A stretch of 64,000 nt of DNA, from IMG/VR virus record IMGVR_UViG_3300032280_000361; one strand, written 5' to 3'. Origin of the DNA: a virus (taxonomy: Duplodnaviria > Heunggongvirae > Uroviricota > Caudoviricetes). Below the pieces are notes generated by a model. It made no database searches. It was not told the DNA's origin and saw only the letters and a list, made by a program, of their open reading frames with translations. Of the stretch, positions 18,321 to 59,264 are shown one piece after another (the first letter of the stretch is position 1; every line of letters starts with the position of its first letter). Position numbers and translations under genes: made by a program.

Positions 18321-18347
18321 ACTTTGGTATTTATATATCTATATATA

Positions 18348-18653: not shown

Positions 18654-18654
18654 C

Positions 18655-20021: not shown

Positions 20022-20022
20022 A

Positions 20023-21836: not shown

Positions 21837-21837
21837 A

Positions 21838-36821: not shown

Positions 36822-36960
36822 AATAATTGTTTCAGTTTGATTATTCCTACTGATGGAGGTTTTTGTTTAAGAGAACTTTATAATAGGGGTCTCTCTGATT
36901 TAATCCCTTTCTTTTTACTTCGTAAAGATACGAAAATTATTTCAATCTACCAAGTCTTTT

Positions 36961-37884: not shown

Positions 37885-37941
37885 TTTTTATTACATAGTA
37901 AAGATAGGTAATTCCGTCCAAATGACAAAGTCTTTTCCCAA

Positions 37942-38049: not shown

Positions 38050-38160
38050 ATCTTATCTTTTGTTACATAGTAAAGATACGAAAAAGGCTGGAACTAGCAA
38101 GCTTTTATCCAATTATTTTTAAAAATTCTTGATTGAGTATCAACGAGTTACGCAAAACAA
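38050..38160 (-). promoter_or_regulatory. conserved operator-promoter cassette (type 2)
   Basis: near-identical to 48719-48835: TTGATTGAGTATCAACGAGTTA ... CCAATTATTTTTAAAAA ... GCAAGC ... GGAACT ... CTTTTTCGTATCTTTACTATGTAACAAAAGATA-ATG. Confidence 0.55.
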
Positions 38161-38220: not shown

Positions 38221-39846
38221 TTATTTTTTCTTTTTTAAATATTTTTCGAACTCTTTTTTCAAATCATTAAGAGCTTCTTTTTCATCTTTTCCAAAACCTT
38301 TTACTTGAGTATCATCATCAAAAGTAGGATTTGGTGATGGTATTTCTATATTAGCATAAACTCCCCTTGCAGTTTTAAAATAATCTACATCATATCCATT
38401 AATTGTTTTACCGTTTCCACCTACTTTAATTGTCACTTCTTTTATTGAAATTAAATTTTCTATCTTTAACTCAGCATCTCTATATAATCCACTAACCGCA
38501 CTCTCTAACTCCGCTTCCAATTTCTTTTTAATAGGATGTAGTTTTTTAAGATTATCTACGTGTTTCTTTTCTTGTGGTGTACCCTTTGTTTTTTTGTAGT
38601 GTAACAATTCGGTTTCTATTGCAGCTACGGTTTTATTAAAATCAGATTGGATAGCTTTAACTTCTCTACCTTCGTTTACTGATTCTTTAACACCATCTTT
38701 ACCATCCATTGCATCGTGTACTGAATTTAATTGGTCTACTGCTAATGTAATTTGAGAATACATCCAAGAACTCAATTCTTGTCCTTCTTTCATTCTATCG
38801 GAAATCATTTCAGCGTAATCTTCGATTCTTTCCAAATCGCCCATTGCCATTTCCTTCAAACCTCTTAGGATTTCTTCTGGTGATTTATTATCTTCTTCGT
38901 TTATTGATTCTTTTAATCCTGTTTTTGTAAAATCCGCACTAATAATACCTTTTCTTACATCAACATCTTTAACACCTGCTTTTTTCATTTCAGCCCCCAC
39001 CTTATCTATAATATCTTGTGTTACTCCATAAAAACCAAGAAAATAATTACCCTCATATCTATATCCTCCTCTTTGAATATTATGGAATCCTCTTACGGAA
39101 GTAGATGTAGTTTTCATTGGTACTATACCATGTTTTTTCAAAATAGCATTTACAACCTTTCTTACAGGTGGCAGTGTAGCTTCGTTTACCGATTCTCTTA
39201 CAAATTTTCCATCTTTATCGGCTACATAATAAGCAATTTGATTATACGAACCACCTCTTTGCTTTTCAATTTTCTCTACTTCTTTTTTAGCATCCTTATA
39301 TGTTGAAAAGACATCTTTAAATACTCCTGTCCCTTGCCCTCTTCCTTTGTTATACCCAATATAGTATTTATCTTCGTTCACCGATTCGTACTTAATCATA
39401 TCCGGACTAAACTTATCAAAATTCTGTCTTGCCCACTTTACAGCATCTTCGTAGGAATTGAATTTAATCCTATCCTGTTTGAATCCCTTTGCCTTATTTA
39501 GATAATCAATATAAACTTTTTCTTCGTTTACTGATTCACTAACTACTTTCTTACTTGCAAATGATACAGATGGTATGTTTCCAAATGTTTTATCTATTTT
39601 AGCATCAATTCCAAATTGTGATTTTAACATTTTTACAACACCACTACCAAATTTTATATCGGTAAGTTTAAGATAAATGTAATTTTTATTAGGTGCGTTT
39701 TTAATTTCACCACTTACAAACTTTGAACCTATTGATTTAACAATATCATCTACTACATCCGCTGCAAGATATCCTTTTAAATCAGATTCGTTTAATATAT
39801 TCTTTAATCTCATAGGTATAAATATTATTCTATTTTGGTTTCCCAT
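38221..39846 (-). CDS. leader-family protein 1 with internal ESVNE repeats (true start probably Met12, ~39813)
   Basis: MRLKNILNE leader at residue 12; five ESVNE/ESINE-containing repeats. Confidence 0.5.
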   Translation of the reverse strand: MGNQNRIIFIPMRLKNILNESDLKGYLAADVVDDIVKSIGSKFVSGEIKNAPNKNYIYLKLTDIKFGSGVVKMLKSQFGIDAKIDKTFGNIPSVSFASKKVVSESVNEEKVYIDYLNKAKGFKQDRIKFNSYEDAVKWARQNFDKFSPDMIKYESVNEDKYYIGYNKGRGQGTGVFKDVFSTYKDAKKEVEKIEKQRGGSYNQIAYYVADKDGKFVRESVNEATLPPVRKVVNAILKKHGIVPMKTTSTSVRGFHNIQRGGYRYEGNYFLGFYGVTQDIIDKVGAEMKKAGVKDVDVRKGIISADFTKTGLKESINEEDNKSPEEILRGLKEMAMGDLERIEDYAEMISDRMKEGQELSSWMYSQITLAVDQLNSVHDAMDGKDGVKESVNEGREVKAIQSDFNKTVAAIETELLHYKKTKGTPQEKKHVDNLKKLHPIKKKLEAELESAVSGLYRDAELKIENLISIKEVTIKVGGNGKTINGYDVDYFKTARGVYANIEIPSPNPTFDDDTQVKGFGKDEKEALNDLKKEFEKYLKKKK

Positions 39847-40378
39847 ATATCCTCTTTACAATTCTCTTATTAACCTTAGATAGTTTACGAGTATAATACC
39901 CATCTCCTATGAATTCGGGATTCTTATCACTTCCCAATATATCTATTATCTTCTTTTCATCCCTAACAACAGGTGCTCCTGATGATTTCATAATATCCTC
40001 CATCTTCAAACTAGCCTCAATGAACCACCCATTTGTATTACACAATTGGATAACCTTTTTAACTACATCTGATTTAGCGCTCTTCTTATTGTTAGTACCT
40101 AATAGGGCAATCTTATTACCGAATCTAGTTGGTTTGTATATGATGAAAGCATCTGGCTTCTTATCACTATCCACATCTTTCAATGCAGTTGCTTTGTATT
40201 TTGATTGAAGTTCGGAAGCAGAATTGGCTGATAAATCCATACCTGCATTTAAGTAGGTAGTTTTATACATATCCCATATCTCTTCTATACCTTCATCATC
40301 TATGGATTTTAAATCTAAGGTTACCCACTTATTAGGTGGTATCTCTAACTCATTTAATATTTCAGTTAATCTTATCAT
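39830..40378 (-). CDS. leader-family protein 2 (paralog of 40375-40923)
   Basis: MIRLTEILNE leader; shared EIPPNKW and C-terminal GYYTRKL..IYGKPK. Confidence 0.5.
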   Translation of the reverse strand: MIRLTEILNELEIPPNKWVTLDLKSIDDEGIEEIWDMYKTTYLNAGMDLSANSASELQSKYKATALKDVDSDKKPDAFIIYKPTRFGNKIALLGTNNKKSAKSDVVKKVIQLCNTNGWFIEASLKMEDIMKSSGAPVVRDEKKIIDILGSDKNPEFIGDGYYTRKLSKVNKRIVKRIYGKPK

Positions 40379-40923
40379 CGTGGTTTCCCAAACATCATTT
40401 TAGTGTGAATAGTTCCTGCAATTTTTCTATCATATGAACCATCACCATTCCATTTAAGTTCTTTACCCTTTAATGCTCTACGAACTGCATCCTCATCGTT
40501 AACAGGTACTAAACCCTTAGCCATAAATATATCTCTCATCTTACCGGAAACCTCTACATAATATCCACCCTTCTTTAACTTATCCACTTGATGATTCACC
40601 GCTGCCGATTTACCTGCCGAAGAACCATCATGCCCTAATGCAACAAACTTCTTACCAGCTGTTTTGTATTTAGCTATCGTAACCGCATCTATCTCATCAT
40701 CACCATCTACATCTATCACATCGAAGAAATCACCCTCATCAGGAAGGTCTTCTTTATCTTTCACATTAGAATGACCACCAATTGGAGCATAAGCAGTTGA
40801 AATCAAATCAAATATTATTCTCTTAAAACGAGATAGTTCGGAACGTAGAATTGGAGTCCACTTATTTTGTGGTATCTCAAATCGTTTGTCTGTTTCCTTA
40901 AGTAAATCTCTTAATCGTATCAC
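40375..40923 (-). CDS. leader-family protein 3
   Basis: MIRLRDLLKE leader; paralog of preceding gene (EIPQNKW ... FGKPR). Confidence 0.5.
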   Translation of the reverse strand: MIRLRDLLKETDKRFEIPQNKWTPILRSELSRFKRIIFDLISTAYAPIGGHSNVKDKEDLPDEGDFFDVIDVDGDDEIDAVTIAKYKTAGKKFVALGHDGSSAGKSAAVNHQVDKLKKGGYYVEVSGKMRDIFMAKGLVPVNDEDAVRRALKGKELKWNGDGSYDRKIAGTIHTKMMFGKPR

Positions 40924-41507
40924 AATGTAATTTTTTTATCTATATCGTATTTTTCATAAAAGTTATTAAGAATGTTTACTAAATCATCTATCATTCTTTT
41001 ATGTTTCTTTTGAGAATCAATATCTCCATCTGCGAAATCCGTCTTTGTTAATATAGTAGATATTATCTCTCTAGCACGCATACCTTGTACTGAAAACTTT
41101 TCATTCATTTCTTTATTTTCTTTCCATAATAAATTAGAAAATTTTGAATACATATATTTTTCAACCAATTTGTTTTCTAATTTTTTAAACTTAGCAGATT
41201 GGTCTCTTTTACCTATATAAGCATCCTTTTCAGTTTCTAATTTTATCTGATGTGTTATCTCATGTATAACGGCATATTCCGGGTCTTCCATTCTGTTTAC
41301 ATTAAATGAAATGTAAAGAGCTTTCATTGTTTTAGGATTGAACGTTATTGCAGCACCACCCTTACCAATATTATTAAATTTTACAGGCAGAGGTGTTATT
41401 TTTAAATCCTTGCACAATGCTTCATAATACGCTTTTATACTAGCAGGATTACGAACACCTTCCGTTAATATATCGTTTAACTTAATCATATTATTAAATA
41501 TTATCAA
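40920..41507 (-). CDS. leader-family protein 4 with HExxH motif (start likely Met7, ~41489)
   Basis: MIKLNDILTE leader; AVIHEITHQ zincin-like motif. Confidence 0.5.
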   Translation of the reverse strand: MIIFNNMIKLNDILTEGVRNPASIKAYYEALCKDLKITPLPVKFNNIGKGGAAITFNPKTMKALYISFNVNRMEDPEYAVIHEITHQIKLETEKDAYIGKRDQSAKFKKLENKLVEKYMYSKFSNLLWKENKEMNEKFSVQGMRAREIISTILTKTDFADGDIDSQKKHKRMIDDLVNILNNFYEKYDIDKKITL

Positions 41508-42120
41508 TTATATAATCTAACGTATCATCCTTACCTTTTAAATCCTTCCAATGTTTGGAGTTAATAAACATAGGATATAAACCTGTCATATTAGTATCAG
41601 CTTCCATTTCCCACGGTAGGTTTCTATATGCGGAAATATCTGATTTCATTAATTTACCATACTCCTTTGCATCGATATACTCCTTACCTTTCCATAGGAT
41701 AGAAGTATAATCTTTGTTTGGTAATAACTCACCTTTGGATACCTGCTTAACGTGAGTTAATTCGTGTATCATAGATTGGATAATTCTTTTATATGATTGG
41801 TTAGGATTAAAATGTAAATAGAATTTATTATTATCTACAGAGTTTGAGTTTAATGATATGTCTCCAATCATACCTGCTTTATCTTTTTTCTTTACTATAA
41901 TCTTAGCTTTAAACTTATACTTATCCATCATAAAAGAAACAACCGATTTAACCATTAAGGCTTCATATGGTTTCAATTTTAATGATGTCCCAAATAGGTC
42001 TTCCGATAGTATATCTCTTAACTTAATCATATTACCATTTTTTGCAACTCCAATATCTAGCTTTTGTTCTAGGTCCTGGTTCATCACAATTGTGTCTAGC
42101 TCTAAATGATTTCCTCGCAT
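41494..42120 (-). CDS. leader-family protein 5 with HExxH motif (start likely Met31, ~42030)
   Basis: MIKLRDILSE leader; SMIHELTHVKQ and downstream EMEAD. Confidence 0.5.
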   Translation of the reverse strand: MRGNHLELDTIVMNQDLEQKLDIGVAKNGNMIKLRDILSEDLFGTSLKLKPYEALMVKSVVSFMMDKYKFKAKIIVKKKDKAGMIGDISLNSNSVDNNKFYLHFNPNQSYKRIIQSMIHELTHVKQVSKGELLPNKDYTSILWKGKEYIDAKEYGKLMKSDISAYRNLPWEMEADTNMTGLYPMFINSKHWKDLKGKDDTLDYIIDNI

Positions 42121-42601
42121 CCGGATTCGATTTTCTTATTCTCATTGTTTCCTCACCTGCCGAAGCCGCTGAAGTGCCACCGTGTCCAAAGTTTACCTTA
42201 ACAACATTGCCGGCAGGATTCTTTACATATACTTTAAACTTCTTAACATCACCTTGCATTGGTTTACCCAACTTAACATCTCTACCCTGATATTCTGCTT
42301 CGTTTATCTCCGTAGTATATCCTTTTAAGAAATTAATAAAATCTTCTTCATCTTCATCCTCTACATCTAATTCATCGTAATCATCTGTATTATCATGTCC
42401 ACATTTATGACAAAGATATGGGTCTTTTCCACCATCGGATAAATCCCATTCCCATCCACACTCTGAACATTCTACTGATTGAGTTTCATTTTCATTAACT
42501 GGTACACAATTAGGAACTTGTCTATCTCCTTTCTTTTTCATACCAACTTGCTTATATCCCACCCAACAATCTTCGGATAATATATCTTTTAACTTAATCA
42601 T
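42032..42601 (-). CDS. leader-family protein 6 with zinc-ribbon-like Cys cluster
   Basis: MIKLKDILSE leader; CSECGWEWD..CHKCGHD; acidic DEDEEDF stretch. Confidence 0.5.
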   Translation of the reverse strand: MIKLKDILSEDCWVGYKQVGMKKKGDRQVPNCVPVNENETQSVECSECGWEWDLSDGGKDPYLCHKCGHDNTDDYDELDVEDEDEEDFINFLKGYTTEINEAEYQGRDVKLGKPMQGDVKKFKVYVKNPAGNVVKVNFGHGGTSAASAGEETMRIRKSNPDARKSFRARHNCDEPGPRTKARYWSCKKW

Positions 42602-42602
42602 A

Positions 42603-42935
42603 TTACAACTTTGCTATTAATGATTCATAGTCTAACTCAATTGTAAACTGATATGAACCCTGCTTATGTTTCGCATAGAAATCTAACCCTGTCTTCTTCT
42701 TAACGTATTTGATAATTTCATTATATACCTCATTCACACTATACTTTTCTACCTTAGCCAAATCACCTATAGTAGCGGGTAATAATAGTATTGTATCTGG
42801 TTTAGGCGAGGTTACTATAAAGTTCGCTTTGAAGAACTCTAATTTCTTAGCTTCCGTAATTGGAGCAACCTTAGATGGTTGTTTATTGATAACTGGTATA
42901 GAAACCACATTTGATACAATATCTTTTAATCTCAT
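42603..42935 (-). CDS. leader-family protein 7 (divergent leader)
   Basis: MRLKDIVSN N-terminus, 110 aa. Confidence 0.45.
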   Translation of the reverse strand: MRLKDIVSNVVSIPVINKQPSKVAPITEAKKLEFFKANFIVTSPKPDTILLLPATIGDLAKVEKYSVNEVYNEIIKYVKKKTGLDFYAKHKQGSYQFTIELDYESLIAKL

Positions 42936-46020: not shown

Positions 46021-46206
46021 TTAGTTTTCGATTTCAGCTTCAGGAATATGTCTACAAAACCATAACCACTCTTGTTGTTTTAATGTAATATCACATTGCC
46101 AAAATTCTTTTAAGATAGTTGGTTCTTTAACTTGGTCTGCTTTTATCTTACGATACACCCAATAAAGTTCTCCATTAAATTCAACTAATTGTTTATTTAG
46201 TACCAT
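46021..46206 (-). CDS. hypothetical small protein
   Basis: 61 aa. Confidence 0.3.
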   Translation of the reverse strand: MVLNKQLVEFNGELYWVYRKIKADQVKEPTILKEFWQCDITLKQQEWLWFCRHIPEAEIEN

Positions 46207-46723
46207 TTTGTTGTGATTTTAAATCTTCAATTTGTTGTTGTAGTGTTTTTATTGTATCTACTAAATCAAATGATGTTCCGGTTGATGAATCATATACAAC
46301 TATTGTTCCAGCGGTATTTACAATAGTTACAATACCAGGTGTTCCACCGTTTCCTTTTATTGTAGGTGTCACATTAGTGAATAAACTATTCTTTCTTCTC
46401 ACATCTAATACCTCATCAACTAAAACTTCAAATATTTGTCGGAAAGAAGATACAGATGAAATCATATCTTTACTAACTTCTTTACGGGCACTAAACTTAT
46501 CATCATCCCATAATAGTATATGAAAGTTAGTATCCGTAACTGCTTTCCATTTATGACCAGGTCCTAATACATTCAATTCCCACTTTGGTTTATGTGATTG
46601 GTTTAAATCTAATACATCTGCCATATATTTTGTTTCATATGAATTGTGTATTGGGTTAACAATTGAAAATCCTTTATAGGTAACCCCACTTATCTTTTCC
46701 CAACCTTTTATTTTGATATCCAT
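46193..46723 (-). CDS. hypothetical protein
   Basis: 176 aa. Confidence 0.4.
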   Translation of the reverse strand: MDIKIKGWEKISGVTYKGFSIVNPIHNSYETKYMADVLDLNQSHKPKWELNVLGPGHKWKAVTDTNFHILLWDDDKFSARKEVSKDMISSVSSFRQIFEVLVDEVLDVRRKNSLFTNVTPTIKGNGGTPGIVTIVNTAGTIVVYDSSTGTSFDLVDTIKTLQQQIEDLKSQQNGTK

Positions 46724-47576: not shown

Positions 47577-47615
47577 AGTTTGTAAAGATACGAAAAAAAA
47601 TTGATATTAACAAAT

Positions 47616-48718: not shown

Positions 48719-48835
48719 ATTGTTTATCTTTTGTTACATAGTAAAGATACGAAAAAGCGTGGAACTGGCAAGCATTTAACCAATTATTTTAAAAAGTTTT
48801 TCATTGAGAATCAATGAGTTATAAGTAGTTGATAA
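48719..48835 (-). promoter_or_regulatory. conserved operator-promoter cassette (type 2)
   Basis: near-identical to 38050-38160; palindrome TCATTGAGAATCAATGA. Confidence 0.55.
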
Positions 48836-48839
48836 CTAA

Positions 48840-49148
48840 CTACTTAAGAGTTAACATATCCTCAATCATTTGTACTATGTGGGATGGGCCTTTTTTCAAC
48901 TCCCAAATACCCAATAACCTTCTAATTGGTATTCCACCTCCTAAGTCATCACTCCAAAACCATAATTCATAAAGGGCAGTATCACCTTCACCGATTGGAG
49001 TTCGTTCTATATTAACCTGAATAGTTTTTCTTCTATTATATTTGTATAATTGTATTAAGTAAGCGGTATTCAATGTTTCCACTTTACCAACTCTCCACTC
49101 TCCCGCATCCATTTTGTAAAGTTTGGATATGTTCTTTATGGTTAACAT
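48840..49148 (-). CDS. MLTIKN-family paralog 1
   Basis: N-terminus MLTIKNISKL; TAATG stop/start overlap with next paralog. Confidence 0.5.
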   Translation of the reverse strand: MLTIKNISKLYKMDAGEWRVGKVETLNTAYLIQLYKYNRRKTIQVNIERTPIGEGDTALYELWFWSDDLGGGIPIRRLLGIWELKKGPSHIVQMIEDMLTLK

Positions 49149-49441
49149 TAGTATATTAGATTTTCAATGGCGGAACAAAATGAATCCATATCGGAAATTT
49201 GTGCTTTGTTTAATAGAACGTATGAAGAACCGTATTCCAATTTATACATCCCTACTTTGACACGATTAGGATAACGGTGCAACTTTACATCTCTTTTATG
49301 AGAACCCAACATATCATTTATAAAGATACGATAGACGGCACGGTCGGTAACCATATTGGCGATAATGAAATCCAACCCGATTGTACGGCCGGAAAGCTTA
49401 TCCATATTTTCTATTGTTAATAATCCATGCGTTCTATTCAT
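49148..49441 (-). CDS. MLTIKN-family paralog 2 (degenerate N-terminus)
   Basis: LLTIENMDKL after short extension. Confidence 0.45.
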   Translation of the reverse strand: MNRTHGLLTIENMDKLSGRTIGLDFIIANMVTDRAVYRIFINDMLGSHKRDVKLHRYPNRVKVGMYKLEYGSSYVLLNKAQISDMDSFCSAIENLIY

Positions 49442-49521
49442 ATATTCAGTTTTCTTTTATTATACTCTCCATCAGTCCCCCCCCACCGTCCGAAAATTTT
49501 TAGAGAGGGAATATTGATAGT

Positions 49522-49854
49522 TTAGATATCCCATACTTGCCTCCCATAGATACACACTAACTCACCAAATATCCTCATCAATTCCATTTCGGAAAACAAA
49601 ATCTGCAAAGGTTGATGACCTCCATGTGGATTATGAACGGGCTCTAACCTATACCACCGCCCATCTATACTATCCCTATGAGTTTCCTTCCACAACATAA
49701 GAGCAAGAAAATCCTTTGTCTCACCACTCTCCTTCAACTCCATCATAAAGTGGTAACCGTCTTCCCTCTCCGTTACATCATTGATATGGATATGAAACCC
49801 TCCGCTTTGAAGAGCAAACCCAACAAGCTTTTTATAGTTTTGAATCCTTAACAT
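49522..49854 (-). CDS. MLTIKN-family paralog 3
   Basis: MLRIQNYKKLVGF. Confidence 0.5.
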   Translation of the reverse strand: MLRIQNYKKLVGFALQSGGFHIHINDVTEREDGYHFMMELKESGETKDFLALMLWKETHRDSIDGRWYRLEPVHNPHGGHQPLQILFSEMELMRIFGELVCIYGRQVWDI

Positions 49855-50186
49855 TACGCTATACTATCTTTATGGTTTTCCAATGTACTCTCAACTAATT
49901 CGTAAAGTTGAACGGAATGGAGGATATCCTTCGGTTGTAACATATAAGTACACTTCCAACTCGCACCCACTTGAAACACTTCACATTTATAACCGGATGT
50001 GTATCCCCTATTTTGAGAAACGATACTCTCTTCCCTCTCTATTCGGCAAGTTACGGGTTGCCTATCTCCAATACGTTGCTCAAAGACGAATACATAATAA
50101 TCCGCACCTTCGAACGCCTTTGCCAAATCCCATCCCCATATAACGCCGGAAAGGAGGTCTTTATCGTATCGTTTAATTGTTAACAT
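49854..50186 (-). CDS. MLTIKN-family paralog 4
   Basis: MLTIKRYDKDLL. Confidence 0.5.
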   Translation of the reverse strand: MLTIKRYDKDLLSGVIWGWDLAKAFEGADYYVFVFEQRIGDRQPVTCRIEREESIVSQNRGYTSGYKCEVFQVGASWKCTYMLQPKDILHSVQLYELVESTLENHKDSIA

Positions 50187-50550
50187 ATACTTTGTCTAAT
50201 TGGCGGATAAGTGAATAAATGAATACGTTAGGCGAAACAAAATCATTGTAGTGAAAATAAAAAGAGTTCTCCTTCATAGATGGGCCATAGAGATTCATCC
50301 TATAATGGTCGTGTTCGTTATACATAGGTAGAGTATGTAGATAAGTAGAGTATTCAGTTCTCCCATAGTTAAACCCTATACGATACTGAGGTTCTGATAC
50401 ACTATCCTCTAAGTAAGTATCTACCCATAGGAACTCAATAGAAGAAGGGTACTGAGAGGAACGAACACCTAAGTCGTGTATCCCCATTAGTTTATCCTTT
50501 ATATTCTTTATCTGTAGTAACTTACCACTCTGTATATACTTTATACTCAT
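50173..50550 (-). CDS. MLTIKN-family paralog 5 (extended N-terminus)
   Basis: LLQIKNIKDKL at residue 11; C-terminal VYVNN shared with paralog 8. Confidence 0.45.
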   Translation of the reverse strand: MSIKYIQSGKLLQIKNIKDKLMGIHDLGVRSSQYPSSIEFLWVDTYLEDSVSEPQYRIGFNYGRTEYSTYLHTLPMYNEHDHYRMNLYGPSMKENSFYFHYNDFVSPNVFIYSLIRQLDKVYVNN

Positions 50551-50562
50551 AACATTGTTGAT

Positions 50563-50895
50563 TTACCCGCAACTATTTTCTATTACCTTTAACATCTCCC
50601 TTTCTATAAACCACTTATCCTTTATCTCATCCTTAGTAAGATGGCTATGAGAGAATCCACCACCCTCATTAGGAGATTTTAATTGTTGAGATTGTATTCG
50701 GTAGAGTATCGGTTCTTCGCTCCGCCTATCTCTACTTATGGCAACATCGAACATAGGATAGTTCCACCCGCTTATACTCTCAAATCGGAATGTGTACCAA
50801 TCTTCTAACTCCTCCGTATGTTTGCATTGATATAACTTCCCCTTAATAGAGAAAACAAAATCAATCCAAATGTTATGGTTCTTAATCGTTATCAT
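50563..50895 (-). CDS. MLTIKN-family paralog 6
   Basis: MITIKNHNIWIDF. Confidence 0.5.
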   Translation of the reverse strand: MITIKNHNIWIDFVFSIKGKLYQCKHTEELEDWYTFRFESISGWNYPMFDVAISRDRRSEEPILYRIQSQQLKSPNEGGGFSHSHLTKDEIKDKWFIEREMLKVIENSCG

Positions 50896-51200
50896 TTATA
50901 TGGCTTATATTGATTCATTACCCTAATACTCTTATCTAACCACTCCCAATGTAATTCTAATACGGAACGATTCACCACTCCACTCCAAAGAGGTTGTGTA
51001 CCTGGTGTAGTAGTGAACATCATCATCGGTAACTCCCCTTTAGCGTTCTCAAACCTCCTTCCTAAAAAGATTTGGTATTGGTGGCCAGTTCTACCCGTCC
51101 AAAGAAAAACATAACTATCATTCGTCTCCGTTACGGAATTCAACCTCCATGCTAAGAAAACCTTACCCTCCCCTAATGTATAGTTCTTAATTGTTAACAT
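50892..51200 (-). CDS. MLTIKN-family paralog 7
   Basis: MLTIKNYTLGEG. Confidence 0.5.
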   Translation of the reverse strand: MLTIKNYTLGEGKVFLAWRLNSVTETNDSYVFLWTGRTGHQYQIFLGRRFENAKGELPMMMFTTTPGTQPLWSGVVNRSVLELHWEWLDKSIRVMNQYKPYK

Positions 51201-51510
51201 ATATCATTTTGTGTTTACATACTATCGCTACCAATTCATTCCAATTAGGTATATCCTTTGTATCAATGTATGTATGGTAACCGCTCGTTGTCCATAATCT
51301 ATAACCTAATACCTCACTACCTATACGTTTTTTCTTCCTATCTAAAATGACCAACTGCATCTTTTGTGTATCATATCTACCCGCTTCCATTGGTATAAAC
51401 ATAAATCGGTATTCTATATTGGTTGCATACGCTCCGTACAATATCCATTCATCTCCACCAAAATTAAAATTTGCATTATTTAGATTCTTTATGTTCTTTA
51501 TTGTTAGCAT
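51187..51510 (-). CDS. MLTIKN-family paralog 8
   Basis: MLTIKNIKNLNN; ends MIYVNN. Confidence 0.5.
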   Translation of the reverse strand: MLTIKNIKNLNNANFNFGGDEWILYGAYATNIEYRFMFIPMEAGRYDTQKMQLVILDRKKKRIGSEVLGYRLWTTSGYHTYIDTKDIPNWNELVAIVCKHKMIYVNN

Positions 51511-51803
51511 GGGTAATCACTTAATATACCTTCCATTTGAATTAACATATTATCTTTATCCGCAATCCAATCCATAGTTACCTCATTACTTATATCCCTA
51601 CCATTATATAGTATCTCATAAGTCCGCTTTCCCTCATAAGAAGATAGTGAATCCCTACGAAGACCTATTATACATGTCTTAGCCGTTACATTGTTTGATA
51701 CGATGAAATCATAGAACCTATCATCTTCACTAACGTGTAATACGGAATAGTTAGGATGTAGTACCTTACCTACTAGCTTTTGGTATCCTTTAATCCTTAT
51801 CAT
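51504..51803 (-). CDS. MLTIKN-family paralog 9
   Basis: MIRIKGYQKLVGKVL. Confidence 0.5.
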   Translation of the reverse strand: MIRIKGYQKLVGKVLHPNYSVLHVSEDDRFYDFIVSNNVTAKTCIIGLRRDSLSSYEGKRTYEILYNGRDISNEVTMDWIADKDNMLIQMEGILSDYPC

Positions 51804-51943
51804 ACTCTATGTAGTTTAATCCATTCTAAAGAGAAAGATAATAAAGACCAGGGTGCAGGGTATCCTCTATACTCTTTGCCTTTGGCTATTATTGTTATCG
51901 ATGTGGGTTGCCACCTACCTAACTGATTTATTTCTTTTTCCAT
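51800..51943 (-). CDS. small ORF (47 aa, not in ORF track)
   Basis: MEKEINQLGRWQ...; ATG preceded by conserved GATAAACGATAAACTATG context; ATGA overlap with next gene. Confidence 0.3.
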   Translation of the reverse strand: MEKEINQLGRWQPTSITIIAKGKEYRGYPAPWSLLSFSLEWIKLHRV

Positions 51944-51946
51944 AGT

Positions 51947-52222
51947 TTATCGTTTATCATCGGTATAAGTTTCGTTATAGTATGCCTCAATATCTTCCCT
52001 ACCTACATTGTGTGTACATCCATAGGCAAAATCTATTGTCTGATTCTTTTCCATCTCTAAGTAGTTCCTCTTAAACATCTCCCAATGAATTGAATCGGTT
52101 TGTAAATCCTTCATCAACTCTATTCGTTGGAGGGCTAGGGTAAGTGCTGTTTTCATATTATAAATTAAATTTTTTAAATCTCCAATCTCCTGCCTCCCCA
52201 TCAAAACCACCTCTATCCGCAA
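51947..52222 (-). CDS. hypothetical protein (true start may be internal Met at ~52156)
   Basis: 91-aa ORF overlapping upstream gene by 65 nt unless internal start used. Confidence 0.35.
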   Translation of the reverse strand: MRIEVVLMGRQEIGDLKNLIYNMKTALTLALQRIELMKDLQTDSIHWEMFKRNYLEMEKNQTIDFAYGCTHNVGREDIEAYYNETYTDDKR

Positions 52223-52520
52223 TATCTAATATGTTCTCTAAGAATTGGGTAAAGTTATCCAATGAAATCAAATCTCTCGTAGTTACTCCCATAGGATATG
52301 ATTTTTTGTTAGTCCAATCGTATAACCACATCTGATATCTATAACCTATATCCCTATGTTCGGTAGCCTCTCTTATGATATCCATTCGGTATTGGTTAGT
52401 GGATGTATTTAACTTTATCACATATAGTTTGGTTAAGGTATCCATACCATCAATTCTGAATCTATCTGATACCACTTTGGTAGCCATTGAATAAAATCCC
52501 TTTATCTCTAATCGTTTCAT
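52158..52520 (-). CDS. hypothetical protein
   Basis: 120 aa; start preceded by GATAAACGATAAACTATATG context. Confidence 0.4.
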   Translation of the reverse strand: MKRLEIKGFYSMATKVVSDRFRIDGMDTLTKLYVIKLNTSTNQYRMDIIREATEHRDIGYRYQMWLYDWTNKKSYPMGVTTRDLISLDNFTQFLENILDIADRGGFDGEAGDWRFKKFNL

Positions 52521-52525
52521 ATAGT

Positions 52526-52849
52526 TTATCGTTTATCTTCGAAGTATCTTTTAATTACTGAGTATAATTGGTATCGGAACTCTTCAGCTCCTCTCTTTAA
52601 GTTACTATAACTGAGGTTATGTTGTACATATACTCCATCTACCTTTATCTGTAGTGAACCATTTTGATTAGGTTCTTTGATTAAGTGAACCTTTATAACC
52701 TCACTCCAACCTCCAATCACATATTCGAATTCGTAAGCCCCTTCCCAATTGATGGATGTTACACAATGTCCCAATACCTGTCCATTGGATTTAACTATAT
52801 CTCCCTTAATCTTATCGTGTCCGTCTATGTTAATTAGTTTCATGCTCAA
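52526..52849 (-). CDS. hypothetical protein
   Basis: 107 aa. Confidence 0.4.
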   Translation of the reverse strand: MSMKLINIDGHDKIKGDIVKSNGQVLGHCVTSINWEGAYEFEYVIGGWSEVIKVHLIKEPNQNGSLQIKVDGVYVQHNLSYSNLKRGAEEFRYQLYSVIKRYFEDKR

Positions 52850-53078
52850 AGATACAAAATTAGCCCCATATAACCAAATTTTTTTTAGTGAAATTTTACC
52901 CTTTGGGTATTAATATATATTTTTTCTCACGAGGGTAAAAACTAATCAAAATATGCTAGTGTACCCCTGCCCCCCTTTTAAAAAAAAAGTTATTCACATC
53001 TCCATAGAACCTAAGCCCTATGGATGTGGATAACTCGCCTATAGTGTGTGGCTACCCTATGGTGTTACATATTGTTAC

Positions 53079-53288
53079 TTACTTACCTATACCCCATTGC
53101 AGGATTTGTTCCATTGCTCTGTTTGTTGGGAGTGTGGGTACATAGGATGAAGATACTCCTAACTGAGCTGCCCATTCGTTAAAGGGTAGTTGTTCTGTTG
53201 GTACTACACTCTTACTTACTACTGCTCCATTGGGTAACCTATGCCCTACTTCATATACTATCTCTGTTATACTCATTTCTATACTCAT
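53079..53288 (-). CDS. hypothetical small protein
   Basis: 69 aa. Confidence 0.35.
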   Translation of the reverse strand: MSIEMSITEIVYEVGHRLPNGAVVSKSVVPTEQLPFNEWAAQLGVSSSYVPTLPTNRAMEQILQWGIGK

Positions 53289-53314
53289 ATACTATAGTGT
53301 TATTTGTTACTGAA

Positions 53315-53518
53315 TTATTTTTTGTTTCCGCCAACCACTTCCTTTATCCATAGGTAGTAGTAACGGGGTATTGCAAATGTTAAGGTTAGGTAAAGGAATA
53401 CTGTCTCCAAAAAGTTTAACCTCTTCCCCATCTTATTCAATTCCCTATTGGCGGACCGAAGTGGGAAAAAAAGTAAAATCCACCATACCCATATACAGAT
53501 TATTATCGTTGTACTCAT
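53315..53518 (-). CDS. small membrane protein
   Basis: 67 aa, Trp-rich TM (IIICIWVWWILLFF). Confidence 0.35.
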   Translation of the reverse strand: MSTTIIICIWVWWILLFFPLRSANRELNKMGKRLNFLETVFLYLTLTFAIPRYYYLWIKEVVGGNKK

Positions 53519-53521
53519 ATC

Positions 53522-53962
53522 TTATTTGTTATTAATGAAAGCTTTACAACTATGGAACTTAGTGTTCATCCTCTTCCATATGTTCCAATCAATCATCTTA
53601 GGGAACGCCCCATGCATATCTCCTACTGTCAAGCTCTCTAATAGGTTCTTATCTATACTACACCACTTACCACCTTTAGTAGTTAGGATGTGAAACCAAT
53701 AAGGCTTTCCATCAATCATCTTTTCCATCTCTACTACAGTGGTGTTCTTACTCATATAGTAACGTAAGTCTTCAATCTTACACTCTGCATCACCAATCAC
53801 TGGGAAACCTGCTCTAGCCTTAGTAGTATATCGGAATCTGTGTTCTTTCCCCAACTCCGTTAAGTTACTTACGTTGATAGTAGTACCATTTATAGCGATA
53901 GTACCATAGAATACGTTGCCGGCTAATGTGTTTTGATTTAAGACAATTAAAGGATTGTTCAT
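53522..53962 (-). CDS. hypothetical protein
   Basis: 146 aa. Confidence 0.4.
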   Translation of the reverse strand: MNNPLIVLNQNTLAGNVFYGTIAINGTTINVSNLTELGKEHRFRYTTKARAGFPVIGDAECKIEDLRYYMSKNTTVVEMEKMIDGKPYWFHILTTKGGKWCSIDKNLLESLTVGDMHGAFPKMIDWNIWKRMNTKFHSCKAFINNK

Positions 53963-54162
53963 ATTATGAAGGTTTATTTACGATTTCAGTACGAGGTAGG
54001 GGTTCGATTTCAATAGGGGATACCCTCATTCTACACTCGTGACCGGTGTACATAAGGAAGGTAATAAGGGAAACCAATTGTATCTTTCTCAATCTCATAT
54101 AGTAAAGGTAGGGCTTTCAGCTCATATATCCAAGCATTTCCCCAACTATTTTTAAACTATTT

Positions 54163-54429
54163 TTAGTGTTCAATCATCGAAAGCGGAACGTTATAAGAAC
54201 CGAATCCACCTACTATACCCAATGTGGCCTTAGTTCGGTTTATCTTATTTACTACTAACTCCTTACCAGCCAACTTAGGGTGGTTTACTTTAACTACCAT
54301 ACCTACTGATAGAGCCCTCTTCATATAGGAAGCCTCAGTAGCTCTTTTAAACTTAATCATATTAACTACAGCATCGTTTAGGGAACGTAGTTCTGAAATG
54401 GAAAGGGAGGATAATTGTGAAATGTTCAT
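54163..54429 (-). CDS. hypothetical small protein
   Basis: 88 aa, downstream of type-1 cassette. Confidence 0.4.
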   Translation of the reverse strand: MNISQLSSLSISELRSLNDAVVNMIKFKRATEASYMKRALSVGMVVKVNHPKLAGKELVVNKINRTKATLGIVGGFGSYNVPLSMIEH

Positions 54430-54735
54430 AGTGTATCTCTTTTAGTACATAGTAAAGGTACGGTGTAGACCTCATATATCCAAGCATTTACTGAATTATT
54501 TTCTGTTTCCGACAAAATAATCTGTCTGAGTATCAACGACTTATAACTTATTGATTGTCAGAGGGTTACGACCGGCTGTTACTCTCTCTATTCCCGCCCT
54601 ACCACCCTATAAAGGTACGACTTTCCGTCCACAAATCCAAGGGATGTGGATAAATAAAGTTAAAAAAAAAGATGGGAAAAGACTTTGTCATATGGTAGAA
54701 AGTCGTATCTTTACTATATAACAAAACAACAAACA
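54430..54735. promoter_or_regulatory. divergent promoter region (type-1 cassette for minus genes; inverted CGTATCTTTACTATATAACAAAA element for plus genes) containing a DnaA box
   Basis: cassette copy 54430-54560; TGTGGATAA at 54645-54653; plus-strand GTCGTATCTTTACTATATAACAAAACAACAAACA-ATG. Confidence 0.5.
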
Positions 54736-54909
54736 ATGAAATCAGTTAATGAAACCAAATCGAATCTAGACTACTTAAAGGGGTTAAACGGAGAGGAGTT
54801 CTTCTTTAGAGGGCAACATCCTGATAAGAGAACCGATATGGAGTGGGTTAAGTATATGAATACGAAGTACCCTCACCTTAAGTGGACCGGCAAAGATGAT
54901 AAAAAATAA
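54736..54909 (+). CDS. hypothetical small protein (start refined from track ORF 54685)
   Basis: MKSVNETKSNLDYLKG...; ATG 54736 lies 18 nt after the promoter-like element. Confidence 0.4.
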   Translation: MKSVNETKSNLDYLKGLNGEEFFFRGQHPDKRTDMEWVKYMNTKYPHLKWTGKDDKK

Positions 54910-54970
54910 TCATCAAATTGCTTGGATATACGGTATCTATACTGTACCTTTAATATATAAACGATAAACT

Positions 54971-55216
54971 ATGAATAGAAGTGATAGTAAGTTAATAGAA
55001 CTAAACGATGTGATAGGTGTGGAAGTATCAGAAAACTTCTCTCCTACCCTCAGAGCTAAACTTATCCATATAGATGAGTATCACGGAACGTGTCTTATGG
55101 AGGTAGTACCCTCTCCCTATGTATCTATGATGCAAGGTGGTTCACTAAACAATGATAGAGTTGGTGAAAGGTATCACGCTCCTATCTATCGTATCCACAA
55201 CGCTTATTTCTTTTAA
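54971..55216 (+). CDS. hypothetical protein
   Basis: 81 aa; start context ATAAACGATAAACTATG. Confidence 0.4.
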   Translation: MNRSDSKLIELNDVIGVEVSENFSPTLRAKLIHIDEYHGTCLMEVVPSPYVSMMQGGSLNNDRVGERYHAPIYRIHNAYFF

Positions 55217-55226
55217 AAAACAAAAA

Positions 55227-55457
55227 ATGAAAAAATACAGAAACTACAAAGTAGAACCTGCCCCTACACCTACCTATACAGAGATGGTCTCAGTTACCCT
55301 TAAGAATGGAGGAGTTAAAAAATTCGTAACACCTCAGAAAGCTGAGTTGTGGATAGAAGAACAAATAGCCCTCAGAGCAATCAATGGTGGTGCTAAAGAG
55401 GCTAAGGCACAATTAATGGATATGGGTTTGGTCCCATTTGAATTTAAAACTGCATAG
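55227..55457 (+). CDS. hypothetical protein (start refined to Met26 of track ORF 55152)
   Basis: MKKYRNYKVEPAP...; begins 10 nt after previous stop. Confidence 0.4.
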   Translation: MKKYRNYKVEPAPTPTYTEMVSVTLKNGGVKKFVTPQKAELWIEEQIALRAINGGAKEAKAQLMDMGLVPFEFKTA

Positions 55458-55460
55458 AGT

Positions 55461-55799
55461 ATGGACGGAAACAAAAAAGAATTTATAGAGTTATCCGAAG
55501 AGGAACTATTCCAACTGCCAGAGAATGAGTTTATGGAGTACTTAGACCGTAAGGCAGCATATCTAAAAGGATTCACTCGCCCATTAGGTACATACCACAC
55601 AAAACAATTTATGGCTCAGACAGTAGGTGGTGAGTTATCCACAGAACAATTAAAGAAAGCAAAAGAGATTGGAGCAGTAGGGGATGAAGCATGGACAGAA
55701 GGAATCCGTAAGGCGGCAGAGAAGATGGGAGGAGACCCTAAGTTATCAGACCCTGGCATTAAGAACATCAAAACCAATAGGAAACAATGGTTTGATTAA
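55461..55799 (+). CDS. hypothetical protein
   Basis: 112 aa. Confidence 0.4.
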   Translation: MDGNKKEFIELSEEELFQLPENEFMEYLDRKAAYLKGFTRPLGTYHTKQFMAQTVGGELSTEQLKKAKEIGAVGDEAWTEGIRKAAEKMGGDPKLSDPGIKNIKTNRKQWFD

Positions 55800-56660
55800 A
55801 AAAATAAAAAATAATTTATTAAAAGCTTGTTTATATGGGGTATTCTTCGTATCTTTATAACGGTGCCCTGTAGTTTCCTCTCCCTATACTATACAGAATA
55901 AGAACCCGCCCTCCACAACCCTAAAGTTACAAAATAATTCCCATAAAGTCAAGCATTGTGGATAACTTTTTCCTTTCCCTATATAGTACAATTCTGTCTT
56001 CGTTTCCTCTTTTCTATTTAACATAAGGCGCATTATATAACAGATGGTTTGTATTTCTCCTATACCCCATTGTACTCCTACGACATTGTTTAGGGTTGTC
56101 TAAAAAGTTTAGGTCTATCTAAATCACATATGTAAACCCTTATACAATTGTAAACAGAATTTTATTCCTCTCAGCCCGACGGGTCGCAGTATATTTTCCT
56201 CTCTATACCCCATTATGTAGAATAAAATTCTGTGTCTAAGGCTTTGTCATATGGATTTTTATTCGTACCTTTGTACACTCCTAACACGTAAAAAAAATTT
56301 GGTCGTTAGACATATACATCTATATCCACTTTTCCCCACTTCCTCCCACTTTTCACCTTCGTTATAGAGATAAGAAATAACTACTTAAGTGTATAATTCA
56401 GAATATTACACGCTTTACTCGCTTTGACACTCCACTTTTAGATATGGTGTAAATACTATCGATTCCATCTCCATCCCTTACTCTTACCCCTTAATAGAAG
56501 GTAGATAGACCCTAAAGTGAATACTCCTAAAAATAGTGGTACATTGTGTAATACCATAGCGAGTGTACATAACGATATCACCACTATAAAACTTAATCCT
56601 TGCTCCATATCCGTTGTTTGTTTTAACCTCCGTATATATATCGATTTAGGTTAAAAAAAG
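55800..56660. repeat. ORF-free convergent intergenic region with degenerate direct repeats and a DnaA box
   Basis: copies of TTTCCTCTC(C)CTATA(CCCC)ATTGTAC at ~55874, 55975, 56052, 56192; TGTGGATAA at 55957-55965; CCACTT x3 at ~56330. Confidence 0.45.
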
Positions 56661-58556: not shown

Positions 58557-59264
58557 CTATATCAATTCTTTGTTAGTATATCCAAAGGTATCCATATCTT
58601 CCTTTGTTATATCTCTTAGTTTTCCGATTATATCCCTACGCCCCTCTTTATGTAAAATGTTTAACATTCTATGTGATTCGTTATGGTGATGCCCTTCGTT
58701 TAACTTATTAAGAATGAATCCATATAGTGTAACCGCATACAATCTATCATTAATTTCCATTGGTATCCCTACCTCATCTAATATACCAAAATCCTCTATA
58801 TACTCTTCCACATTGAAAAAAGGCTTTGTAGTACTCAAGGATATGTTAGATGAAGGTCTGTACCGGTCTACTAACTTATCCCACCCTTCTCTTATATCCT
58901 CTATCTTATATATGGTTTCATTACCCCTTCTATCCAAATCCCAACTCTGCGGTTGTAGATGTGAATCGTTTGATTTAGCACACTTATCCTTATACCCATC
59001 TAAGAATTTATCTAATGCCCTTATCTTATCCGCAAATGGTATCTCCATCCCCTTTACTATCCCTAAGTGGTAGAATATACTAACCAATCTCTCCATTGGA
59101 TTTCTTACGAATAAAAGGGTTTCACCTTCGTGTCTATCTCCCGCAATCCGCATTCCCTTCCAATCTAATATACTCTTAAAGAATCCTGCCATTAGGGAGC
59201 TCCCTGACTTCTCAAAAAATATTAAATTCTTTCTTAACTCAGGTATGTATATTACTTTACTCAT
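58557..59264 (-). CDS. sulfotransferase-like protein
   Basis: IFFEKSGSSL (5'-PSB-like), LFVRNPMERLVSIFYH (3'-PB RNPxDRxVS). Confidence 0.55.
   Translation of the reverse strand: MSKVIYIPELRKNLIFFEKSGSSLMAGFFKSILDWKGMRIAGDRHEGETLLFVRNPMERLVSIFYHLGIVKGMEIPFADKIRALDKFLDGYKDKCAKSNDSHLQPQSWDLDRRGNETIYKIEDIREGWDKLVDRYRPSSNISLSTTKPFFNVEEYIEDFGILDEVGIPMEINDRLYAVTLYGFILNKLNEGHHHNESHRMLNILHKEGRRDIIGKLRDITKEDMDTFGYTNKELI

Follow-up and report, generated by a model that had tools for sequence, protein, structure and literature searches.

A minus-strand operon of eleven diverged paralogues that appear to share one fold in an uncultured jumbo phage

The 64,000-nt stretch of DNA analysed here (the window) comes from the AT-rich genome (32-36% GC) of an uncultured jumbo phage and carries a minus-strand operon of about 4 kb, running from ~52878 to 48800. 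It encodes 11 diverged paralogues, each a single-domain protein of ~100 aa. Nine ORFs fill 48840-51803, all on the minus strand and at exactly the coordinates given in an earlier note on this DNA. That note took the array to end there, but two further members, recognized by profile matches, lie upstream at 52158-52520 (MKRLEIKG...) and 52526-52843 (MKLINIDG...), and two small unrelated ORFs stand between this pair and the nine.

Read in the direction of transcription, the region begins with a hairpin and T-run at 52987-53036 that resembles an intrinsic terminator and would close the preceding transcription unit (RNA fold -26.8 kcal/mol, z = -3.98, none of 200 shuffles as stable; CTTTTTTTTT follows it). 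A Bacteroidota-type promoter match read from the sequence, TTTG-N20-TATCTTTG, occupies 52847-52878 and ends 3 nt ahead of the first family ATG. The gene that opens there, member A (MKLINIDGHDKIKG...; 52526-52843), matches the family HMM at E = 3.4e-4, ranks first at E = 0.022 without its N-terminus and is 92% identical to P0120. Translation probably begins at the ATG at 52843 rather than the TTG at 52849, and the gene call on a separately assembled contig, L005, gives member A 105 aa. Member B (MKRLEIKGFYSM..., 120 aa; 52158-52520; orthologue cluster P0127) matches more strongly, at E = 2.9e-13, or 4.4e-9 without the N-terminus. The two intervening ORFs, both in the ORF list and in the L005 gene call, encode 69 aa counted from the ATG (51947-52156; no family HMM match) and 47 aa (51800-51943; overlapping the next gene by 4 nt).

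The nine follow on the same strand, and for each the HMM E-value is given here with the value after removal of the N-terminus. Member 1 (MIRIKGYQKLVG, 99 aa; 51504-51803) scores 1.3e-20 and 3.4e-11 and has orthologues that are 89-94% identical. Member 2 (MLTIKNIKNLNN, 107 aa; 51187-51510), at 1.4e-9 without its N-terminus, belongs to the most widespread subfamily, with ~100 orthologue clusters at 56-92% identity. Members 3 (MLTIKNYTLGEG, 102 aa; 50892-51200) and 4 (MITIKNHNIWID, 110 aa; 50563-50895) score 8e-14 and 1.2e-5, and 9.5e-20 and 1.6e-10, respectively. Member 5 (125 aa; 50173-50550) is the most divergent: it reads LLQIKNIKDKL from residue 11, matches in two pieces at E = 0.017, and ranks first at E = 0.0052 without its N-terminus. 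Member 6 (MLTIKRYDKDLL, 110 aa; 49854-50186) scores 3.4e-16 and 5.4e-6, with orthologues 77-96% identical, and member 7 (MLRIQNYKKLVG, 110 aa; 49522-49854) 9e-14 and 2.9e-4. An 80-nt gap precedes member 8 (MNRTHG-LLTIENMDKL, 97 aa; 49148-49441), which scores 3.3e-22 and 2.4e-13. The final gene of the operon is member 9 (MLTIKNISKLYK, 102 aa; 48840-49148), at 6.8e-7 without its N-terminus.

Two small hairpins at and after the last stop, followed by AAAAACTTTTT, form a weak terminator-like unit end at 48801-48845 (RNA fold -12.1 kcal/mol, z = -2.37). Beyond it, at 48719-48800, lies one copy of an intergenic, promoter-like repeat (...CTTG-N-TCGTATCTTTAC...), which would serve the next gene on the minus strand; an 88% identical copy is found at 38053-38150 and shorter copies elsewhere. 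The L005 contig ends at 48728, inside this copy of the repeat, and at 54450, beside a similar element at ~54446-54462.

The array is non-random and consists of real genes. The start pattern ATGHTAASNATHMAR occurs seven times in the window, every time at a start of these ORFs; shuffles predict 0.18 occurrences, and none of 100 reaches seven. None of the other long ORFs in the 64 kb opens with the motif. Could the array nevertheless be a product of assembly? The metagenomic origin of the DNA and the repeated elements on its flanks, which can confuse assemblers, would lend some credit to spurious ORFs or mis-assembled population variants. Yet the sequence of L005 (Logan contig ERR2848488_218419, 5723 nt) matches 48728-54450 at 100% identity, with an equal gene layout, so an independent 5.7-kb assembly repeats the array base for base. 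Similar arrays are found on more than 25 other contigs, dN/dS lies below 1 in all 327 pairs compared and the AlphaFold models are confident, which leaves the probability of an artefact close to nil.

The members were described as sharing a conserved start, with the remaining ~90 residues almost unrelated. Both statements need qualification. Seven of the nine do begin M(L/I)xIx(N/G/R), but in two the motif is internal, starting at residue 11 in 50173-50550 (LLQIKN) and at residue 7 in 49148-49441 (LLTIEN). Pairwise, the impression of unrelated bodies holds, with identities of 13-23% and a best BLASTP E-value of 0.006, but at the level of profiles it does not. Pairwise BLAST and leave-one-out HMMs built from the members in the window alone are too weak to decide the matter, which the profile of the wider family settles: once the 12 N-terminal residues are cut away and relatives within reach of BLAST are left out, each of the 11 ranks first of ~192, with E from 2.4e-13 to 0.022. 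By this measure the bodies are homologous, and the multigene family of true paralogues that had been suspected is borne out. An alignment of the 11 paralogues has no conserved stretch.

Conservation is spread over ~20 family-wide positions, among them L2, I4, N6, W18, Y30, F/I32, L47, R49, Y60 and hydrophobic helix positions. In 138 aligned sequences Y30 and I4 are each kept in 137, R49 in 130 and Y60 in 122. Other positions and the net charge are free to vary, with pI spanning 5.3-9.6, a range that also disposed of the idea that these proteins are DNA mimics. AlphaFold models of members 2 (pLDDT 90.1, pTM 0.83) and 9 (pLDDT 93.8, pTM 0.85) have the same order of elements, a comparison made without superposition; both input alignments take in the whole family, so the two models are not independent tests. 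The predicted domain consists of an extended N-terminal M-L-T-I-x-N, a one-turn helix (residues 7-10), a conserved Gly12, an antiparallel sheet of 5-6 strands and a C-terminal helix, and neither model has a close neighbour in the PDB. Taken together, the profile tests and the two models are those of a family whose members appear to share one fold, the question that the alignments and structure prediction proposed earlier had been meant to address.

The place of the start block in this fold bears on the suggestion that it is a second type of leader. Residues 1-10 have pLDDT of 85 and 96 in the two models, which puts the block confidently within the modelled domain. Several clusters at 50% identity, as well as the gene at 5412-5885 of the related locus L001, carry it internally behind N-terminal extensions of 30-70 residues that look zinc-ribbon-like or helical. 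The first six residues would thus be part of the fold and not a detachable signal. Alternating hydrophobics, strand periodicity and pLDDT further suggest that MLTIxN packs against the conserved sheet face formed by W18, Y30, R49 and Y60.

A signal that sends differing cargo into the prohead, to be injected, or towards another shared machinery would still have a respectable precedent. Proteins of this kind in T4 are packaged in the capsid and injected, and their capsid targeting sequence (CTS), a short N-terminal peptide, is followed by a prohead-protease cleavage site with the consensus L/I-x-E. The T4 internal proteins (IPI-III, Alt) carry this CTS at their N-termini, and in T-even phages the hyperplastic IP locus encodes diverse defence-countering proteins that share nothing else (PMC3012670). 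The present array resembles that locus in its clustered small genes, in a short N-terminus far better conserved than the body in pairwise comparison, and in its variation between relatives. It differs in that the bodies are homologous, apparently with one fold, rather than unrelated cargo, and in that the block lies within the domain and can be internal. No cleavage motif or conserved acidic residue, and so no conserved Glu, follows the block in the 138 sequences, where positions 8, 11, 13 and 14 are variable, and the window holds no prohead protease or scaffold context. No match among 50,697 phage genomes supports a T4-like relationship of the phage. A detachable targeting signal is accordingly quite improbable. 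Hardly better placed is a reading in which the paralogues build one mixed assembly, in the virion or inside the cell, with the N-terminal strand docking in trans into a conserved groove on the neighbouring subunit and coupled translation providing equal stoichiometry. Copy number and subfamily content differ greatly among related phages, which is unexpected for a fixed structure, charge varies widely and no structural genes lie nearby, so we regard this too as unlikely.

If the block is a fold element, is it also conserved as nucleotide sequence? The eight junctions of the nine measure -7, -14, -4, +12, -14, -1, +80 and -1 nt. TAATG or ATGA overlaps had been claimed throughout; three of the eight junctions are of that type and five are not. 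Three upstream genes end at a TAA embedded out of frame in the block of the next gene, as with ...YVNN* inside ATGTTAACAATTAA. In the wider family 89 of 98 junctions fall within -23 to +15 nt, and about a quarter (26 of 98) use stops at -7, -13 or -14, within the block. Family genes are without Shine-Dalgarno sequences, and their tight packing is compatible with the translational coupling that the earlier note proposed.

The block itself is A-rich and its codons are skewed (ATG CTA ACA ATA): CTA is used at 76 of 122 sites against 17.6 expected, ACA at 92 of 103 against 52.5 and ATA at 109 of 129 against 81. Nucleotide conservation of the starts, reported for the nine as variants containing GTTAAC, thus stands as a family-wide codon skew; GTTAAC itself is present in only three of the nine, whose starts vary synonymously (TTA/CTA, ACA/ACG/ACC, ATT/ATA, AAG/AAA). 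Subfamily representatives whose bodies are only ~20% identical nevertheless have ATGCTAACAATA in common in 21 of 40 cases. Block codons also carry a signature of the genome: the related locus L014 has CTA and ATA in 11 of 11 genes, the window mostly TTA and ATT. Paralogues share 64.8% of block codons within a locus and 60.4% across genomes, a small effect that 3 of 300 permutations reach.

These observations are what would be expected if the block were kept chiefly as DNA or RNA, as a site of recombination or gene conversion or as a translational operator or initiation element, with the peptide a by-product. In the same direction, orthologues of subfamily 1 have synonymous differences at 47% in the block and 21% elsewhere, as expected if blocks are swapped, and the homology between loci L001 and L002 has two breaks, each located 12-22 nt inside the following gene, in the block or immediately beyond it. 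Outside subfamily 1, however, orthologues differ synonymously at the same rate in the block (21%) and in the gene body (19%), which places the main constraint on the peptide. Every synonym of Leu, Thr, Ile, Lys and Asn is found in the block, and amino-acid conservation extends past it, over positions 7-12 and into core residues far from the start. A primarily nucleotide-level cause is therefore a minority possibility, though one to be taken more seriously than a leader or a mixed assembly, and the earlier suggestion that recombination holds the block draws weak support from the codon skew and the slight sharing within genomes, against synonymous sites that are not frozen. MLTIxN would be kept mainly as a peptide, and the codon skew and embedded out-of-frame TAA stops likely contribute a weaker nucleotide-level layer.

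Related loci were retrieved by orthologue alignment and by a two-motif DNA pattern; a search of IMG/VR with member 2 alone returned none. Full-length matches place at least 143 clusters at 50% identity in the family; at 90% identity the clusters number 339. Its arrays, on related metagenomic phage contigs of up to 274 kb, number 2-16 members, and some stretches of 13-20 kb hold two or three arrays. Pfam-A, PHROGs, NCBIfam, PADLOC and the PDB contain no match, and 50,697 deposited phage genomes gave nothing by megablast with the region or by tblastn with member 2, the family consensus or a 646-aa neighbour. No annotated homologue, informative fusion or conserved partner gene was found, nor any literature on the motif or on comparable phage arrays. 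In 185,579 cellular genomes the two-motif pattern has four chance matches, none with family genes, and hence points to neither a prophage nor a host. The family is restricted to one uncultured clade of aquatic jumbo phages.

Within this clade turnover is extensive, as had been anticipated for sibling phages. The 139 genes of the related loci make up 44 subfamilies, a minimum for the family as a whole, and are arranged in a different order in every locus. At the level of sequence, comparison of these loci shows evolution by duplication, deep divergence and cassette-like reshuffling of order between related phages. Orthologues are nonetheless 56-96% identical across many samples, with a median dN/dS of 0.37 over the 327 pairs and none above 1, a pattern that shows purifying but relaxed selection on the aligned genes. 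Values for family genes (0.17-0.86) are about twice those of flanking control genes (0.08-0.19), so "diversifying" is apt insofar as the ratio exceeds that of the neighbours, but never in the sense of a ratio above 1. A strong arms-race model might predict gene-wide positive selection, which dN/dS does not detect. Hypermutation or a diversity-generating system (DGR) was rejected on the same two grounds, orthologue conservation and dN/dS below 1.

The operon is probably expressed early, to judge from its match to a promoter consensus. The coding strand has nine strict matches to TTTG-N19-21-TAHHTTTG, the Bacteroidota consensus (PMC6847099), where 0.43 would be expected, and most of them lie shortly before an ORF start; a sigma-70 promoter scan, by contrast, found no excess over shuffles. 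A host-type (Bacteroidota sigma-A-like) promoter of the operon's own makes early reading by the host RNA polymerase probable. Protein matches point indirectly to the same hosts: the best matches of an SPFH protein are in crAss-like Bacteroides phages, and matches of GroEL fall in Flavobacterium, Cellulophaga and Bacteroides phages. Genes for heme oxygenase and bilin reductase, common in cyanophages, are also present on sibling contigs and count against a Bacteroidota host. On balance, these uncultured aquatic phages probably infect Bacteroidota.

The model we somewhat favour combines these elements: an operon of diverged paralogues, a start block that forms the opening structural element of the fold, shuffled cassettes, and early binders diversified at their surface. 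MLTIxN, as a packed element, would be under the tightest constraint within a scaffold that can vary freely at its surface. In a weaker layer at the RNA or DNA level, the A-rich, skewed codons of the block contain out-of-frame TAA codons that stop the upstream gene in about a quarter of junctions; with such a stop built in, translation of any upstream cassette ends where the next gene begins, and coupling of the two would be favoured. The products may be early, soluble binding proteins, each directed against a different host or competitor target. From the early-type promoter, the surface divergence and the raised dN/dS we infer a role in host takeover or counter-defence.

How does this compare with known systems? 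Among large eukaryotic DNA viruses, the MGF110, MGF360 and MGF505 families of ASFV and the poxvirus expansions consist of tandem diverged paralogues in variable regions, with copy turnover and presumed host interaction. The phage family likewise has tandem paralogues of common descent, apparently with one fold, in a variable region where copy number and content differ between genomes, and a conserved scaffold with a variable surface. It differs in belonging to a bacteriophage, in its ~100-aa proteins, in its operon with overlapping stops and starts and in lacking any sequence or fold relationship to those families, to which it would be a bacteriophage counterpart. Phage anti-defence clusters such as anti-CRISPR loci usually combine unrelated families, often with an HTH regulator. 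Runs of small, fast-evolving soluble proteins with unassigned folds, restriction to narrow phage clades and early expression (here inferred from the promoter) are common to both; here, unlike there, a single family has undergone a 10-16-fold expansion, a regulator was not found and no defence library matches. The PeSLs (promoter-early stem-loops) of T4-type phages are mobile regulatory cassettes through which modules are shuffled (PMC2839356, PMC4122927). As with PeSLs, a short conserved sequence at gene boundaries coincides with breakpoints of insertion, deletion or replacement, but within the array this boundary repeat is coding (codons 1-6) and the promoter type is Bacteroidota-like, not sigma-70-like. 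Repeated promoter and hairpin elements flank the operon as a whole, with none between family genes.

A bolder variant would make the conserved N-terminal peptide and the sheet face (W18, Y30, R49, Y60) a common "handle", either a CTS-like signal for capsid targeting and injection or a docking strand acting in trans for combinatorial assembly, and the block with its stops a universal cassette junction. Though this seems a long shot, it would imply that Bacteroidota jumbo phages keep a library of early or injected effectors that can be shuffled without an integrase. On the favoured reading, a sizeable protein family without annotation or close structural neighbour is newly defined, and Bacteroidota phages, whose counter-defences are little known, may plausibly draw on it for binders used in host takeover or anti-defence. 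Its small scaffold with a hypervariable surface may interest protein engineers, and its starts illustrate how a conserved coding sequence can double as a stop/start junction in tightly packed operons that lack Shine-Dalgarno sequences.

Nine open reading frames of 97-125 aa occupy 48840-51803 of the window, all on the minus strand, as the earlier note placed them. The shared start it ascribed to all nine applies to seven, which begin M(L/I)xIx(N/G/R); in the other two the conserved N-terminal MLTIxN stretch (the block) is shifted by 6 (MNRTHG-LLTIEN) or 10 residues (MSIKYIQSGK-LLQIKN). A degenerate 15-nt block pattern matches seven times in the window, always at the start of an array ORF (0.18 expected from shuffles), and no further long ORF of the window has an MLTIxN-type start. 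Two additional members lie upstream, at 52158-52520 (MKRLEIKG...) and 52526-52843 (MKLINIDG...), with two small unrelated ORFs between them and the nine; the 'MK-L-x-I' start variant is frequent across the wider family. Junctions within the nine-ORF array measure -7, -14, -4, +12, -14, -1, +80 and -1 nt, and three upstream genes stop at an out-of-frame TAA inside the next gene's block, for example YVNN* within ATGTTAACAATTAA. Could the array be an assembly artefact? An independent 5723-nt Logan contig (ERR2848488) is 100% identical to the window over 48728-54450, with the same gene layout, and refutes this explanation. The eleven genes look like a single ~4 kb transcription unit, as read from the flanking signals: upstream, a strong hairpin with a T-run (52987-53036; -26.8 kcal/mol, z = -3.98) is followed by a promoter match, TTTG-N20-TATCTTTG (52878-52847), ending 3 nt before the first family ATG, and the last stop codon is followed by two small hairpins and, beyond these, by a copy of an intergenic promoter-like element that recurs in the window.

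Beyond the block, the proteins had been described as almost unrelated, which is true only of pairwise comparison (13-23% identity; best member-to-member BLASTP E = 0.006). With the first 12 residues cut from both profile and target, and every representative that BLASTP detects from the target left out, all eleven members still rank first among ~192 sequences (E 2.4e-13 to 0.022), nine of them at E 3e-4 or better. Columns conserved over 138 sequences run from M1, L2, T3, I4, N6, K9, I/L10, G12 and W18 through V/I20, V/I23, E25, Y30 (137/138), F/I32 and L/F34 to V/I45, L/I47, R49 (130/138), Y60 (122/138), L62 and, in the C-terminal helix, hydrophobic positions. Among 1.84 billion cluster representatives, a profile search finds 143 clusters at 50% identity (E <= 0.001), nearly all of 90-120 aa and most matched over nearly the whole profile, and a word-indexed search yields 339 family clusters at 90% identity. 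A 176-aa protein at 46193-46723 (-), starting MDIKIKGWEKISG... and carrying a C-terminal extension, looks like a distant relative of the family; its homologues in two related metagenomic phage loci (L001 2767-3408, L002 1182-1898) match the family HMM weakly over ~100 residues (E = 0.003-0.004) and have a Cys-rich, zinc-ribbon-like N-terminal extension. The 130-aa ORF at 34257-34649 (-), repeatedly the top decoy against the N-terminus-less profile (E = 0.03-0.29), could match by chance or be very remotely related.

Queried with member 2 (51187-51510, minus strand) and with the family consensus, a set of 50,697 deposited phage genomes gave no homologue. The family does occur on related metagenomic and IMG/VR contigs, which reach 247-274 kb and come from samples that are marine, estuarine and probably freshwater. 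On these, 2-16 members stand in tandem on the same strand, counted on stretches of 20 kb or less: L014 has 12 in 4.7 kb, L028 has 15 in 5 kb, and L001, L002 and L006 have 13-15 within 20 kb. The 139 non-redundant genes form 44 subfamilies (single linkage, >= 35% identity), and 8 of the 11 window members fall in subfamilies absent from the other sampled loci. Gene order differs in every locus, and copy number and content turn over between sibling phages. Among 327 orthologue pairs, which are not phylogenetically independent and are dominated by subfamily 1, median dN/dS is 0.37 (IQR 0.30-0.47) and none exceeds 1, so that gene-wide positive selection was not detected; between L001 and L002, family genes give 0.17-0.86 against 0.08-0.19 for flanking non-family genes. 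The members are genuine genes, kept by a purifying selection that is relaxed. They do not hypermutate, since orthologues are conserved. Some public records label member-2 orthologues (107 aa; P0267, P0270, cluster of P0005) 'lipopolysaccharide export LptBFGC system permease protein LptF', an annotation that has no support in the sequence and is almost certainly wrong.

What, then, holds the block? Every synonymous codon is found in it, and synonymous differences between orthologues are about as frequent there as in the gene body outside subfamily 1 (21% vs 19%) and more frequent within it (47 vs 21%). Because these codons are not frozen, the primary constraint is on the peptide. This agrees with the AlphaFold models of members 2 and 9, in which the block region is modelled confidently and a one-turn helix (residues 7-10) is bounded by Asn6 and Gly12, positions that would fit helix capping. 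It also agrees with several clusters in which the block follows zinc-ribbon-like or helical N-terminal extensions of 30-70 residues, evidence against a cleavable leader that must lie at the N-terminus. The second type of leader proposed earlier is thus disfavoured, as is one resembling the T4 capsid targeting sequence (CTS): CTS cargo bodies are mutually unrelated and a cleavage site follows the signal, whereas here the bodies are homologous and no such site follows the block. Other observations point to a nucleotide-level layer as well; conservation primarily at that level, through recombination or an operator, is a rival reading. Block codons are over-used relative to their own genes (CTA 76/122, 17.6 expected; ACA 92/103, 52.5; ATA 109/129, 81; AAG and AAC too), ATGCTAACAATA is common to 21/40 subfamily representatives, and non-orthologous paralogues share block codons slightly more within one locus than between loci (64.8% against 60.4%, a level that 3/300 permutations reach); the window's own preference is TTA and ATT. 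Between L001 and L002 each family gene acts as a cassette, and for two of the cassettes (subfamilies 6 and 5) nucleotide homology breaks off 12-22 nt inside the next gene, within or just past the block. Given the synonymous variation, the earlier suggestion of a start held by recombination survives as a probable contributing layer, and we read the block as doubly constrained, at peptide and nucleotide level. Among 98 tandem junctions, 89 fall between -23 and +15 nt and 26 place the stop inside the block at -7, -13 or -14; upstream regions of family genes are A-rich, without a Shine-Dalgarno sequence. The block would be a core peptide of the fold and part of an A-rich initiation/termination overlap zone that may also provide microhomology for exchanging cassettes.

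The strict Bacteroidota promoter consensus, TTTG-N19-21-TAHHTTTG (PMC6847099), occurs nine times on the window's coding strand against 0.43 expected (minus strand 62583, 52878, 32122, 27392, 16491, 13896, 9556, 6945 and 1188; plus-strand matches are at 11014 and 56243). Most copies lie directly 5' of ORF starts, that of the first family gene included, and many stop only 3-5 nt short of the start codon, a spacing that suggests leaderless or very short-leader mRNAs. These matches suggest a Bacteroidota host; Shine-Dalgarno sequences are absent, the best matches of an SPFH protein are in crAss-like Bacteroides phages, and GroEL-like matches include phages of Flavobacterium, Cellulophaga and Bacteroides. 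Sibling contigs with heme oxygenase and ferredoxin-dependent bilin reductase count against such a host. These genes, which are more typical of cyanophages and at odds with the promoters, lie with UvdE between family sub-arrays on 247-252-kb contigs (L001 6154-8138, L002 5845-8116). Since the promoter is of host type, host RNA polymerase probably reads the operon, which would make its expression early.

The repeated intergenic element, a hairpin plus promoter-like box (...AAAAGaCTTG-N17-19-TCGTATCTTTAC...), resembles PeSL-type regulatory cassettes. It occupies 48719-48840 and 38053-38150 (minus strand), with shorter copies near 35729-35770, 37886-37906, 36922-36936, 47582-47597 and 54446-54462 (minus) and 54703-54726 and 55846-55857 (plus); L001 and L002 contain similar pieces. 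The Logan contig ends within one copy (48728), and its other end (54450) adjoins the copy at 54446-54462. Promoter-like elements diverge at about 54.45-54.73 kb, and GC and AT skew reverse locally at 10001-12000 and 54001-56000, where plus-strand ORFs appear (10270-11232, 55152-55799); elsewhere the window is coded on the minus strand.

Identity and architecture are well supported. For function, which we infer, the reading with most support is an early operon encoding binders that share one small scaffold and have diversified surfaces, putatively serving host takeover or counter-defence and evolving through duplication, divergence and cassette shuffling; the members may possibly be subunits of a mixed assembly instead. 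Four known systems come closest by analogy: the T4 internal-protein locus and its CTS (PMC3012670), the modular shuffling that PeSLs mediate in T4-type phages (PMC2839356, PMC4122927), multigene families in large eukaryotic DNA viruses, and clusters of anti-defence genes. By homology the array belongs to none of them; it is a new family within a known kind, the viral multigene family.

A second tandem paralogue family at 39830-42935 (-), of 110-208 aa, has another conserved N-terminus, M(I)(R/K)L(K/T/R)(D/E)(I/L)L (MIRLTEILNEL, MIRLRDLLKET, ..MIKLNDILTEG, MIKLKDILSED, MRLKDIVSN), probably the earlier note's first type of leader. A GroEL/Cpn60-family chaperonin gene (62623-63981, minus; Pfam E = 2.5e-50) may lack part of its N-terminus or have a wrongly called start, since its match begins only at profile position 70. 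The modification-type enzyme cluster at 13901-27342 (minus) includes a tryptophan halogenase (20023-21267; Pfam E = 9e-87; best phage match pelagiphage HTVC008M, 35%), P-loop or sulfotransferase-like proteins and probable 2OG-oxygenase-like proteins, and a further sulfotransferase lies at 58557-59264. The phage also encodes a tmRNA (11906-12284, minus; Rfam RF00023, 101 bits, full-length model) with the ARAGORN tag peptide DVELSTMTFEDAMAFVGADYAVAA*.
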